A DNA stretch of 64,000 bases from assembly GCA_000004695.1 (NCBI GenBank), contig CM000151.3, forward strand, positions 8,160,001-8,224,000, read 5' to 3'. The DNA is from Dictyostelium discoideum. Its lineage: Eukaryota. The notes under the pieces were generated by a model that did no database searches, was not told where the DNA came from, and saw only the letters and a list, made by a program, of their open reading frames with translations. Positions within the stretch are counted from its first letter, which is position 1, and each line of letters starts with the position of its first letter. The position numbers and the translations under genes were made by a program. Of the stretch, positions 31,422 through 62,100 are shown in pieces.

Positions 31422-34400
31422 ATGTGTGATAAAATAGAAATATTATTTTGGAAAGTTTTTAAAAATCAATATTTATTCAACGAGATATTTAATCAAATTC
31501 ACAACAATCAATGGATTGAATATGATGACCCAAATAAATATAATGTTTACAATAGAGGTAAATTTGGAGACACTCACTCTTTACTAATAATGTTAGAAAA
31601 TGATCTACTCCCATTAATTAAAGATAAAATCAAACATGGTGATCATATAGAAATTACTTATGATTCAATGTTGGAACTTTTCTCAAAATTATCAACAGAA
31701 CCTTCAATAAATAGTAATAAAAATAAAAATAAATATAAAGATGAAGATTATTTAAAAATTATTGAATTATTAATGAAACATAGAAGAGATGAATTTGAAG
31801 TTTTTGATTTAATAATGATGGCAGTATCCTCTCGTTCTCCAGATGTTATTAGATTATTAGTTAATGAACCATATTCAGTTATAATTTATCCAACAATGCT
31901 TGAAAATGCAATTATGTATTCAAATTTAGCAACAATCAAAGAACTAGTAAATTTAGAACCAATAAATTTTAAAAACTATGGTATTAAATTAATCAGTGAA
32001 GAATTTAAAAGAAAATCATTATCATTAGCAGCACACAGAGAAACTCTTAAAACTACAATCACTGAATACATTTTTAATAATCCATCATTATATTCAATGC
32101 CACCACCATTATCATTATTAAATATTCAAAAACAACAACATGGGCAACAAGGACGACAAACACAATCAACAAATAAAAGATTTAAAGTATCAGAAACTTT
32201 ACATTCAAATTTAAATAATAAAAAAAAAAAAAAAAATAACTATAATGATAATGATGATGATGATGAAGAAATAAAGTATGAATATATTGAATTTGAAGAA
32301 TTTATAAAATTAAAATCAACCAATTTATTAAAATCATTTATGGAATTAGATATAGTAGTTTTAAGTGAAACTAAACCAAATTTTAATTCATTTCTCAAAA
32401 TGTATCATACATATGAAAGATTACAGGTTGGTATTAAAATTATTCTAAAGTATGGAAATACAATTTCAGATATAAAAAAAAGAGAAGAAATTTTAAAAGA
32501 AATCAATAAAATTGATAGAAATAATAAAAGAGGTTTTAATAAATTAAAAGAATTGAGAAAATTAGTAGCAATAGAATTCCCAAATCAAACAAACTTTTAT
32601 TTCTATTATTGGAAAGCATATCGTGAGAATATTAAAAAACTTGGTAAAGTTCCTAAAAAATCAGGTTATCCAGGTAATATACAAATGTTTGGACACCCTC
32701 TTTTACAAGATGAATTAGTCAATAATCAAATCAATACTCAAGGAGGTGATGGAAATATAGAACAAGTAGAATTATTATCATATATTACATATTCAGATAA
32801 TGAAAGTGATAATGAAGTTGAAGAAGAAGAAGAAGAAGACATAATAAATGAAAAGGAATTATTTAATTTATCTAATAGACTTAGAAAAGCAACTATTTTT
32901 GATATATCCAATAGGTATTCAGATTTACTCAATTCATATTTAAAAGCAATTAAAGAATGTAATATTGAAAAGCTAGAAGAGATTGATACAAATAATCCAA
33001 TGTTTAAATTAGATGTTTCAAAATATCATTGTTTTCAATTACCAAATGAAAAAGAAGATATAATGAAAATTTGGTATTACTTTAATAAACACTCCTTTAA
33101 ACAAATGATACCAAATTATGATATTCTCATTGAATTCCTTTCAAGTGTAACTAATATTATTCCACCTTTTGAATTGAAAATATCTAATATTAAAGACCCA
33201 CTATTTGGAAAGCTTGGAACATTTCTAACACATCAATTATATAAAAAGAATTTTAATGTAATTGAATTATTATTAAATAGTTTTGATAATTTTAGTTTTA
33301 CACATCAACCAGAACAAATATCAGCCATTATAGATAAAGAGAGAGTTTTATTTCATATTAATGGTGAATTACCCCAAGTTGATAAAAAGTTTAGTTTTCA
33401 AATAATTAGAATAATTGAATTGATAATGGACAAGTTTAATAAACTCACTAAAGATCAAAATGGTTTTGAAAATATTTCGACAACATATCGTCTCATTTTA
33501 AATAATTTATATGATCAATTACTTAAAGTTAAAGGTTTAACAATCGATCAATTAGAATATGTTAGATCAATTATTCCTCAACAATTATTTAATAATAATA
33601 GTTTTGAAACCTATCGTATCTTTTTCTATCTTAATATCAGATCTTCAAAATTAACAAAATACATAATTGAAAGACCTGGAATTCCAGATTTTATTCAAAA
33701 TTCAACTGAACTCCTTTATAATCATTTCTACGATACTATTGGACCAATTTCAAATGAAATTATTGGTTTCGATTTAAGAAAATATTTGAATTATGATTTA
33801 TTCACATATGATTATATATTAGGTAGAGAATCAAATCAATACAGTAGTAGTAGTAGTAGTAGTAGTAGTAGTAGTAGTAGTAGTAGTAGTAGTAGTAGTA
33901 GTGGTAGTAGAGGTAGTGGTAGTAGTGGTGGTGATGATGATAGCAATTACAATAATAAGAAATACATAACTCAATTCGATACAATATTAAAAGAATTAAT
34001 TAAACAATTATCATTCAATATTTGTACAAACGTTAGTAATAGAGATGAAATTGTTGATGGTAAAGATTTCTTTAATCATTCATTAAATGAAGATTTAAAA
34101 TTCAGTTTAGATATTGGTAGAAAAGATTTATTTTGGGAATTATTAGATTGGATTCAACAATATATGATTAAAAATGAAAATTTAATGAAGCATCGAGTTT
34201 ATCAATTTAATTCACCATATGAATCATTATTACCAACTGGTACAATATTTTCAAATGTAAAAATAATAAAAAAAGAATTACCATCACCATCAACAACAAC
34301 AATTGAAAGCACTTTTTTAAAAATTGATAATTTTGAAAAACCAATACCAAATGAATCAACGATTAAAGTTAATTGGAATTCAGATAAATTAATTCAACCA

Positions 34401-59195: not shown

Positions 59196-62100
59196 ATGAG
59201 TGATAGAACAGAAATATTATTTTGGAAAGTTTTTAAAAATCAATTTTTATTCAAAGAGATATTTAATCAAATTCACAACAATGAATGGATTGAATATGAT
59301 GAACCAAATAAATATAATGTTAACAATAGATGTAAATTTGGAGACACTCACTCTTTACTAATAATGATAAAAAATGATCAACTCCCATTAATTAAAGATA
59401 AAATCAAACATGGTGATTATGTACATTTTAATTATGATTCAATAAGATTTCTTTTCTTAAAATTATCAACAACAGAACACCTACCACCATCAATAAAAAA
59501 TAATAATAAAAATAAATATAAAGATGAAGATTATTTAGAAATTATTGAATTATTTATGAAACATAGAAGAGGTGAATTTGAAATTAATGATTTAATACAT
59601 ATAGCAGCTTCTATAAATTCCCCAGTTATCATTAGATTATTAGTTAATGAACCATATTCAGTTATAATTTATCCACAAACATTTGAATTTGCAATTAGAT
59701 TTTCAAATTTAGAAACAATCAAAGAACTAATAAATTTAGAATCACTTAATTTTAAAAACTATGGTATTAAATTAATCAGTGAAGAATTTAAAAGAAAATC
59801 ATTATCATTAGCAGCACATAGAAAAACTCTTAAAACTACAATCACTGAATACATTTTTAATAATCCATCATTATATTCAATACCACCACCATTATCATTA
59901 ATAAATAATCAAAAACAACAAGATCAACAACAAACACAATCAAAAAATAAAAGATTAAAAATATCTGAAACTTTACATTCAAATTTAAATAATAAAAATA
60001 ATAATAATAATAATAATAATAATAATAATAATAATAATAATAATAGTGATGATGATGATGATGATGATGATGATGATGATGATGATGATGATGATGATGA
60101 TGATGATGATGATGATGATGATGACGATGATGGTGATGGTGATGATGATAGTGATAATTATACTGATAGTGATAATTATAATGATAATGAAAATGGAAAT
60201 GATAATTATAAAGAAAAAATAAGAAATGGATATATTGAATCTCATGAATTTATAGAATTAAAATCAACCAATTTATTAAAATCATTTATGGAATTAGATA
60301 TAGTAGTTTTAAGTAAAACTAAAACATATTTTAATCAATTCCTTAAAATGTATCATCCATATGAAAGATTACAAGTTGGTATTAAAATGATTCTAAAGTT
60401 TGATAATACAATTCCAGAAAAAAAAAGAGAAGAAATTTTAGAAGAAATCAATAAAATTGATAGAAATAATGAAAGAGGTTTTAATAAATTAAAAGAATTG
60501 AGAAAATTAGTGGTAATTGAATTCCCAAGGCAAATAAACTTTTGTTACTATTATTGGAAAGCTTATGGCGAGAATATTAACAAACCTGGTGAAGTTCCTA
60601 AAAAATTAGGTTCTCCAGATAGTAATATGGAAACTTTCGAAAACCTTCTTTTAGAAAATGACTTACATGTCAATAATGAAACCAATACTCAAGAAGGTGA
60701 TGAAAATATAGAACAAGTAGAATTATTATCAAATAGTTTATATTCAGATAGTGAAGATGAAAATGAAGTTGAATTTGAAAGATATGTTGGACAACATGAT
60801 CCTTTTTTAGAAGAGTATTTTAATTACTCAAATAGATTAAGAAAAGAACCATTTTTTGATATATCCAATAGATATCCAGATTTACTCAATTCATATTTAA
60901 AAGCAATTAAAGAATGTAATATTGAAAAATTAGAAGATATTGATACAAATAATCCAATGTTTAAATTGGATGTTTCAAAATTTCATTGTTTTCAATTACC
61001 AAATGAAAAAGAAGATATATTGAAAATTTGGGAATACTTTAATAAACACTCATTTAAACAAATGATACCAATTGATATTCTTATTGAATTCCTTTCAAGT
61101 GTAACAAATATTATTCCACCTTTTGAATTGAAAATTTCAAATCTTAAAGAGCCATTATTTAAAAAACTTGGAACATTTCTATTATGGCAATTGTTTAAAA
61201 AGAATTATAATATATTTGAATTATTATTAAATAGTTTTGATGATTTTAATTTTATATTTCAACCACAAGAACTATCAGCTATGATAGATCAAGAGAAAGT
61301 TTTATTTGATGGTGATGGTGAATTATTCCAAATTGATAAAGAGTTTGGTTTTCAAATAATCAGGATAATTAAATTGGTAATGGACAAGTTTAAAAAACTC
61401 AGTAAAGATCAAATCAATATTAAAAATATGTCAACAACATATCGTCTCATTATAAATCATTTATATGATCAATTACTTAGAGTTAAAGGTTTAACAATCG
61501 ATCAATTAGAATATGTTAAATCAATTATTCCTGAAAAATTATTTTTTAATTATTTTAAAGCCTATCGTATCTTTTTCTATCTCAATATCAGATCTCCAAA
61601 ATTAACAAAATACATAACCAAAAGACCTGGAGTTGCAAATTTTATTGAAAATTCAGAAGTAGAGGATTACTATAATACTATTGGACCAACTACAAATCTA
61701 ATTACTGGTGATGAAATTATTGGTTTTGATTTAAGAAAATATTTAAATCTTGATTTATTCACATATGATTATATATTAGGTAGAGAATTAAATCAATATA
61801 ATTGTAGTAGTAGTAGTAGTAGTAGTAGTAGTAGTAGTAGTAGTAGTAGTAGTAGTAGTGGTAGTGGTAGTGGTAGTAGTAGTGGTAGTAGTAGTGATGG
61901 AAGCAAAAATAATAAAAAGTACATAACTCAATTCGATACAATATTAAGAGAATTAATTAAACAATTGTCATTCAATATTTGCACAAACCTTAGTAATAGA
62001 GATGAAATTGTTGGTGGTAAAGATTTCTTTAATCATTCATTAAATGAAGATTTAAAATATAGTTTAGATATTGGTAGAAAAGATTTATTTTGGGAATTAT

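Follow-up and report, generated by a model that had tools for sequence, protein, structure and literature searches.

Coding triplet repeats and homopolymers were reportedly described genome-wide in Dictyostelium discoideum by Eichinger et al. in 2005. Here we analyze such repeats in a tandem array of one gene family on chromosome 2 of D. discoideum AX4, in which two tracts of simple codon repeats differ in length from copy to copy; the array lies within a stretch of 64 000 nt (the window; G+C content ~20%, part of an 8.48-Mb contig). The exons of D. discoideum have been reported to contain 3064 perfect triplet repeats with 20 or more units, which show high polymorphism and vary as much as non-coding repeats do, and repeat genotyping is already standard practice in this organism (Scala 2012, PMC3460934). 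Homopolymers encoded by a single codon have been read as recent expansions that are enriched in genes with a high rate of non-synonymous substitution (dN), and 68% of them occur in genes without D. purpureum homologs (Sucgang 2011, PMC3188802). High indel rates, with many indels being multiples of three bases, have been reported as well (PMC7466956), and the homopolymers and triplet repeats of D. discoideum have been the subject of a review (Williams & Scaglione 2022, PMC9234386).

Compared with these coding microsatellites, the tracts in the array show nothing essentially different. They are perfect in-frame triplet repeats, mostly of AAT (Asn) with Ser also favoured, the runs consist of a single codon, their lengths vary between strains, and their host genes are fast-evolving, weakly constrained and restricted to the lineage; slippage plus drift is the reading in both cases. 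What the array adds are parallel copy-specific expansions in tandem paralogs and some further units, namely GAT (poly-Asp) and the hexamers GATAAT, GATAAC and AGTGGT. The phenomenon as such is already known and typical of the D. discoideum genome. Indeed, the first 26 kb of the window contain, between 4227 and 21397, ten more perfect triplet repeats with 10 or more units, e.g. (ATA)36 at 20548-20655, (TAA)30 at 20975-21064 and (TAA)25 at 17164-17238; nine of the ten lie within five long open reading frames (ORFs) unrelated to the family and one outside any long ORF, so that coding microsatellites are the norm in this stretch. An earlier note on this DNA had given the expansions appreciable weight as a finding; the observation itself is real, and the property it describes is documented genome-wide and recurs in these ten repeats outside the family. 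On its own the array therefore carries little weight, being a locus-level example of the abundant, polymorphic and apparently near-neutral coding microsatellites found in fast-evolving genes throughout the genome. Its value is illustrative, as a single 30-kb array displays parallel expansion from an inherited proto-repeat, with amplification of whichever unit is locally pure.

More distant systems share some of these features. Yeast cell-wall genes such as FLO1 reportedly carry length-variable intragenic tandem repeats (Verstrepen et al. 2005), and these are alike in that changes in repeat number inside an ORF give rise to protein length variants between strains or paralogs; the yeast minisatellites have units of tens to hundreds of bp and quantitative phenotypes, whereas the units here are 3-6 bp and no phenotype is known. 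The Asn-rich insertions of Plasmodium falciparum (PMC3749963) likewise occur in an AT-rich genome, where AAT-driven poly-Asn of variable length and doubtful function lies in loops between conserved blocks. Apart from the different organism, the Dictyostelium tracts are unlike them in including Ser/Gly and Asp, and the comparison is not meant to suggest any connection with heat shock or parasitism. The tgrB/C locus (Holland et al. 2025, PMC12745789; bioRxiv 10.1101/2025.10.22.684067) resembles the array in its tandem organisation, in containing pseudogenes, in varying in copy number from isolate to isolate and in combining high amino-acid divergence with a mosaic pattern of similarity among the copies. 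Unlike the Tgr proteins, to which it has no sequence or domain relationship, the present family is all-helical, without TIG domains or any Pfam match; no recognition role is known for it, and the finding concerns repeats inside genes rather than gene turnover. The array itself has the make-up of a birth-and-death tandem array, with head-to-tail copies, two pseudogenised members and copy-number differences between isolates. It does not behave as a phase-variable contingency locus, since the units are 3 or 6 bp and all length variants stay in frame, and the motifs AAT, AGT and GAT differ from the classical disease-type CAG/CTG, CGG and GAA.

From 27 kb to its end, the window holds eight members (A-H) of the family, with seven copies (B-H) on the plus strand and one inverted copy (A); coordinates follow the ORF list, for A, B and E together with the alignment. 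The intact copies B (31422-35405, 1327 aa), D (38851-42750, 1299 aa, 100% identical to DDB_G0277643 of D. discoideum AX4), E (44055-48116, 1353 aa), G (54671-58762, 1363 aa) and H (59196-63353, 1385 aa) are single-exon ORFs of 1299-1385 codons and ~80-84% identical to one another in conserved columns. Copy C (36172-38459) is a 5'-truncated pseudogene that is frameshifted into three ORF pieces, copy F (48264-54398) an interrupted pseudogene with an in-frame stop at 52695-52697, and copy A (26997-30749, minus strand, 1250 aa) a divergent paralog with ~31% identity to B-H. Two low-complexity segments vary strongly in B-H, an Asn/Asp segment of AAT and GAT codons (hinge 1) and a Ser/Gly segment of AGT and GGT codons (tract 2). 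Near the C-terminus lies a third segment, which is acidic; its variation in B-H is more modest, and A has a far longer version of it.

Hinge 1 was measured between the anchors '...STNKRLK..NL(N/K)' and 'EEIKYEYI'. In the anchored alignment it comprises 18 residues in B, 13 in D, 48 in E, 15 in F, 64 in G and 76 in H; in copy C it is missing, as that part of the gene is absent. The short versions are NKKKKKNNYNDNDDDDEE in B (32217-32270, 18 aa), NNSNNNNNNDNEE in D (39637-39675, 13 aa) and NNDNDNDNENNNYEE in F (51289-51333, 15 aa). In E (44823-44969) we find (AAT)13, followed by ~10 repeats of GATAAT and DSDSDNDDEE. The hinge of G (55448-55642) consists of N29 (with two AAC codons), AGT, (AAT)33 and EE, i.e. 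N29-Ser-N33 with 62 Asn in total, which by composition would fit a prion-like Asn-rich domain. That of H (59991-60218, 76 aa) starts with NK, (AAT)16, AGT and (GAT)25 GAC GAT GAT and ends in a degenerate Asp/Asn/Gly/Tyr tail; in residues it is N16-Ser-D28, with (GAT)25 pure, then GDGDDD. These counts come close to those of the earlier note, which had listed (GATAAT)n for E, about 63 Asn for G and Asn17 followed by about 33 Asp for H. In D, G and H as well as in the orthologs of B and D from another isolate (ACTFIR, see below), a Ser codon parts the upstream Asn run from the downstream Asn/Asp run; taken as an internal landmark of the hinge, it shows that both sub-runs changed length independently. 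Two ORFs on the minus strand, at 44759-45202 (147 aa) and 55372-55872 (166 aa), simply result from reading the Asn/Asp hinges in reverse complement. Such antisense poly-Leu or Leu-Ser ORFs across the hinges are artefacts of stop-free repeats and not genes, a point to be kept in mind for annotation.

Tract 2, measured between 'DYILGRESNQY' and 'KKYITQ', is 38 residues long in B, 30 in C, 21 in D, 44 in E, 55 in F, 47 in G and 38 in H (anchored alignment). In B (33843-33956, 38 aa) an uninterrupted (AGT)20 is followed by a Ser/Gly mix, giving 24 Ser in the Ser/Gly part and 25 across the full 38-residue segment. The tract of C spans 37075-37164 (30 aa) and that of D 41236-41298 (SSGFSGGGSSSGYDDGSKNNN, 21 aa), with SSGFSGGGSSSG as its Ser/Gly part. 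E (46533-46664, 44 aa) has an interrupted Ser/Gly run of ~36 residues, in which the longest pure run is (AGT)7, and F (52809-52973, 55 aa) has a degenerate Ser-rich tract with an internal GSVSSS duplication. In G (57206-57346, 47 aa) (AGT)35 precedes GGGSSSGSKNNN, so that 39 Ser are present, among them the 35 of the pure run; in H (61800-61913, 38 aa) NC and a pure (AGT)18 precede GSGSGSSSGSSSDGSKNN, with 26 Ser in the 30-residue Ser/Gly run and 27 in the full segment. For this site, too, the earlier note had read the sequence well (roughly 24 Ser in B, a short mixed run in D, about 30 Ser/Gly in E, about 40 Ser in G and about 30 in H), and its span of 33843-61895 runs from the first AGT of the Ser tract of B to the last codon of the Ser/Gly tract of H. 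Comparable low-complexity tracts are thus also borne by the pseudogenes C (tract 2 only) and F. Copy A has no tract at either homologous site and carries instead a poly-Asn run of its own, (AAT)19 at 28914-28970 on the minus strand, at a position without a tract in B-H.

We aligned the intact copies and, separately, 15 family proteins with MAFFT and found both tracts in the same alignment columns in all B-H-type copies, as the earlier note had proposed. Its expectation that the lengths remain unequal after proper alignment was borne out as well, with 13-76 residues for the hinge and 21-55 for tract 2. The perfect in-frame repeats within the ORFs of 1327-1385 codons are (AGT)20, (AGT)35, (AGT)18, (AAT)33, (AAT)16, (GAT)25 and ~10 repeats of GATAAT, besides (AAT)19 in A. 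As these are long perfect repeats with unambiguous homology on their flanks, chance is ruled out.

The codon make-up of the runs is equally uniform. All long Ser runs use AGT only, out of six Ser codons; the Asn runs use AAT with zero to two AAC, and the Asp run GAT with one GAC. Runs of a single codon or a single hexamer are a signature of slippage and not of selection for composition. In every copy and isolate examined, AGT or GGT make up 57-89% of the codons of tract 2, and AAT or GAT 50-92% of those of the hinge; the Ser/Gly and the Asn/Asp mixtures therefore each represent one triplet family whose members differ only in whether the first base is A or G. In the alignment of 15 proteins, both tracts are short and mixed in the distant members (DDB_G0277653 and DDB_G0277585) and in most copies of other isolates, so that the short state is likely ancestral and the long runs were derived copy by copy. 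As a rough estimate, each run of 50-105 bp should have accumulated 3-6 substitutions at the synonymous divergence (dS) of the paralogs (~0.10-0.12), had it been as old as the duplications. Their purity accordingly suggests, to the precision of that estimate, that the runs are younger than the duplications or continually homogenised.

The same variation is seen between isolates, where we located the orthologs via the flanks of neighbouring genes. Relative to AX4, the isolate ACTFIR (GCA_054859385.1) has diverged by 2.2% over the neighbouring gene with a cofilin domain and by a dS of ~0.07-0.08 in A, B and D. The poly-Asn of the A ortholog is N11-K-N8-S-N12 in ACTFIR, compared with N19 in AX4. 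The B ortholog has the hinge NKNNNNSD8EE and, in tract 2, exactly (AGT)20 with a different Ser/Gly tail. For H, whose ortholog is recognised by 91% nucleotide identity and the distinctive hinge tail, the ACTFIR hinge has N24 and a degenerate Asp-rich stretch with only short Asp runs instead of N16-S-D28, and tract 2 is (AGTGGT)17(AGT)9 with 61 residues instead of (AGT)18 with 38 residues. The Asn runs of G-type hinges, recognised by identical flanking residues, measure 7 in a second isolate (ACTFIW), 25 in ACTFIR and 29+33 in AX4. An E-like copy of ACTFIW has (GATAAC)14 where E of AX4 has (GATAAT)n, and in yet another copy from ACTFIW the hinge consists of N45 and then (GATAAT)n, with (AGT)19 AGC in tract 2. 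The visible copies of a third isolate, ACTFIY, have short versions only. The tracts have therefore expanded, contracted and switched repeat unit in ways that depend on the lineage as well as on the copy. This comparison among natural isolates, suggested by the earlier note and made here via assemblies, yields differences in both lengths and units for ACTFIR and ACTFIW. Together with GCA_054859355.1, GCA_054859205.1 and GCA_054883475.1 (see below), the ACTFIR assembly presumably belongs to PRJNA1300491 (AX2-214, CR116C, OT3A, and either M4B or S6B).

A different picture emerges from a second, independent de novo assembly, GCA_054883475.1 (locus-tag prefix ACTFIT), which is nearly identical to the window. 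Over 23.9 kb (28836-52793) the two share 99.6% identity with 37 differing sites, all of them single-nucleotide polymorphisms or A/T homopolymer lengths and none in the coding tracts. In all seven copies from B to H the tracts agree codon for codon, and the G (1363 residues) and H (1385 residues) proteins are identical to those of the window. The window and this assembly probably represent two laboratory lineages, and from Table 1 of Holland et al. 2025 (PMC12745789) we infer that the latter is the lab strain AX2-214. If so, (AAT)33, (AGT)35 and (GAT)25 would have been stable over decades of separate laboratory propagation, which fits the low microsatellite mutation rate reported for D. discoideum (reviewed in PMC9234386). 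The long tracts thus show no change between near-identical assemblies and strong differences between wild lineages. The usefulness for genotyping that the earlier note had foreseen accordingly holds between diverged isolates and not between these two assemblies, where no tract differs.

Outside the tracts, the same comparison yields nine indels (30899-50361), all in intergenic A/T homopolymers, e.g. 27 additional A residues at 50361 and a difference of 12 nt at 48687, and a cluster of T-to-A differences at 48349-48900. Both the indels and the cluster may be due to real slippage or to sequencing error in either assembly.

We further asked where the tracts lie in the protein and how strongly that protein is constrained. 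An AlphaFold model of residues 1-1200 of D, built on an alignment of 13 sequences (mean predicted local distance difference test score (pLDDT) 56.8, predicted template modelling score 0.38), is all-helical with confident blocks at ~50-235, 277-384 and 487-626. Residues 236-276 (hinge 1), 745-826 (tract 2), 1133-1171 (acidic segment), 385-486 and 889-980 have a pLDDT <50, and both tracts of D thus fall in such segments between helical blocks of pLDDT ~80. This location is in line with the idea of the earlier note that the tracts may be length-variable linkers between conserved blocks; as the alignment behind the model is shallow, the agreement is suggestive only. The ratio of non-synonymous to synonymous substitutions (dN/dS), estimated approximately after Nei and Gojobori, is 0.8-1.15 among the paralogs and 0.6-0.77 between AX4 and its ACTFIR orthologs; the B-D pair has a dS of 0.074, below that of the other pairs. 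With dN/dS near 1 the proteins appear barely constrained per residue, though ORFs of 1300-1385 codons stay open at a GC content of 20%. The family is either near-neutral or diversifying, in addition to being all-helical and confined to Dictyostelium.

Taken together, the tracts are in all probability ordinary coding tri- and hexanucleotide microsatellites that grew out of an inherited proto-repeat, in loops under weak constraint, by replication slippage acting independently in each copy. The ancestor of B-H would have had two short, cryptically simple segments, one of AAT/GAT before 'EEIKYEYI' and one of AGT/GGT after 'DYILGRESNQY', both situated in surface-exposed, probably disordered loops between the helical blocks of a Dictyostelium-specific protein under weak constraint. 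Once the tandem duplications had taken place, the proto-repeats of each copy would have altered their length separately via replication slippage, to which unequal exchange between repeat units may have contributed. In each case the locally pure unit would have been amplified and homogenised: AGT, AAT, GAT or GATAAT in the AX4 copies, and AGTGGT or GATAAC in other isolates. With unit lengths divisible by three, the reading frame would be preserved and the ORF of 1300 codons would survive; as the loops would tolerate polar and acidic insertions, length changes would be nearly neutral and subject to drift. The homologous positions, the codon purity and common codon families, the lengths specific to copy and isolate, the low-confidence model segments and the high dN/dS are observed; slippage as the molecular event and neutrality are what we infer. 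The claim of the earlier note that expansion and contraction have run independently in each copy is supported by the single-unit runs, the short ancestral state, the isolate differences and the reproduced lengths.

Several points weigh against this explanation. Slippage itself is unobserved, and as the tracts do not differ between the near-identical assemblies, the sequences give no direct rate. In B, (AGT)20 is equal in length and purity in AX4 (33843-33902) and ACTFIR (locus L001, 8128-8187), although the flanking 100-120 bp are ~7% different and ~4.5 differences would be expected in the 60-bp run at the silent rate; this fits homogenisation together with length homoplasy, but could also reflect some constraint. 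The comparison of purity and age is biased, as the runs were picked as uninterrupted stretches. The dN/dS values come from our own Nei-Gojobori script applied to a very AT-rich genome and are approximate, and low pLDDT is no proof of disorder in a model built on 13 sequences.

Among the other explanations, the one that survives best holds that exchange between copies, i.e. unequal crossing-over or gene conversion of misaligned paralog tracts, is the main driver of tract change and the same process that alters copy number. The array is indeed structurally dynamic and certainly remodelled by such exchange, as the copy sets of ACTFIR, ACTFIY and ACTFIW differ, the nearest neighbour among the AX4 copies switches along the gene in 300-bp windows (mosaic similarity), and the lower dS of B and D is compatible with conversion. 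However, with 88-95% identity per window all paralogs are about equally distant from one another, so that the switching may be noise, and no breakpoint mapped to a tract in the sliding nearest-neighbour analysis. Frequent exchange would also tend to homogenise the copies, whereas the hinge of neighbouring ones is built from different units, with (GATAAT)n in E, (AAT)33 in G and (GAT)25 in H, and pure single-unit arrays are the expected outcome of slippage within one tract. We consider exchange unlikely as the main driver, keeping in mind that exchange and slippage are not mutually exclusive.

It is still less probable that the tracts are functional, selected spacers in which the length and charge of a linker are tuned or diversified as the protein family evolves rapidly, with neutral poly-Asn in G, poly-Asp with a charge of about -28 in H and flexible Ser/Gly at the second site. 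Such a role would agree with the position between confidently predicted helical blocks, with the retention of low-complexity segments at both sites in each B-H-type member and isolate examined and with the unchanged (AGT)20 of B in diverged isolates; moreover, a dN/dS near 1 along with intact ORFs of 1300 codons could mean diversifying selection rather than pure relaxation. Against it, lengths of 13-76 and 21-55 residues occur among otherwise similar copies without compensating change, the pseudogenes C and F retain comparable tracts, and copy A and DDB_G0277653 have almost nothing at the tract sites. The usage of a single codon suggests mutation over amino-acid selection, coding repeats genome-wide vary as much as non-coding ones and are enriched in weakly selected genes (PMC3460934, PMC3188802), and no function is known for any member of the family. 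A more specific form, to which we give marginally less credence again, regards the tracts as selected 'tuning knobs' of a fast-diversifying family with variable copy number, in which spacers of different length and charge, such as the neutral Asn62 of G, the Asp28 of H or the (Ser-Gly)17 of another isolate, would make paralogs and alleles functionally distinct; were it true, the identical (AGT)20 of B in two diverged isolates would indicate a length constraint.

That the lengths are assembly or sequencing artefacts, a fair concern for long homopolymeric codon runs that are hard to size in a Sanger-era reference, we reject with near certainty, as the independent de novo assembly GCA_054883475.1 reproduces all B-H tracts codon for codon and in exactly equal length despite 37 other differences.

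Beyond the tracts, replication slippage in weakly constrained loops remaining our preferred explanation, the searches revealed little about the family as such. A Pfam domain search of the family gave no match above threshold, a profile search of PDB sequences found no relative, and a Foldseek search of the D model against PDB returned weak, generic alpha-solenoid matches only (best E 0.013, template modelling score <=0.18); none of the three was informative on function. The weak Foldseek matches include inositol trisphosphate (IP3) receptors, which are also named in an I-TASSER note on DDB_G0277585 (PMC8280847). With a profile of the N-terminal and middle blocks, only 64 representative proteins were found at E<=1e-3 among 1.84 billion, and 10 out of 10 sampled matches were Dictyostelium proteins, belonging to the discoideum complex or, as weak matches, to D. 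purpureum. Homology searches of the protein collection never returned the homopolymer-bearing A, B, E, G and H, nor did exact look-up, while members without long homopolymers were found. The collection may omit or filter homopolymer-rich proteins, which would bias surveys of repeat-bearing proteins; protein databases may thus under-represent them.

As for the surroundings of the tracts, a tRNA scan of the 64-kb window found none. At the syntenic site, ACTFIR has A, B and D followed by an F-like copy that is truncated, with C and E missing; four further copies lie ~75-95 kb away, one of them adjoining a DDE_1 transposase gene (locus L008, 12944-14338); ACTFIW and ACTFIY also differ from AX4 in their copy sets and arrangements. 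Beyond the window end, after H, the family continues (locus L005, 14953-23318) with two fragments (303 and 422 aa, the latter being ACTFIT_004908) and one more complete copy; the latter encodes 1290 aa, and its hinge is short (N8DNDDEE) and its Ser/Gly tract mixed. In copy F, the 5' end (promoter and first ~28 codons, 48264-48432) is cut off from the remainder (50621-54398) by a 2.19-kb insertion at 48434-50624. As its ends form terminal inverted repeats of ~290 nt (48434-48723 versus 50334-50624, 88-92% complementary), the insertion looks like a foldback or terminal-inverted-repeat transposon, judging from its sequence; the F-like copy of ACTFIR (locus L001, from 14994) is uninterrupted at this site. 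The 3' half of F (52290-54398) forms one frame with a single in-frame stop, TAA at 52695-52697. The annotation of the other assembly appears to mask this stop in a predicted 108-nt GT-AG intron (52591-52698) to give a 666-aa product, which looks like an annotation rescue of a pseudogene.

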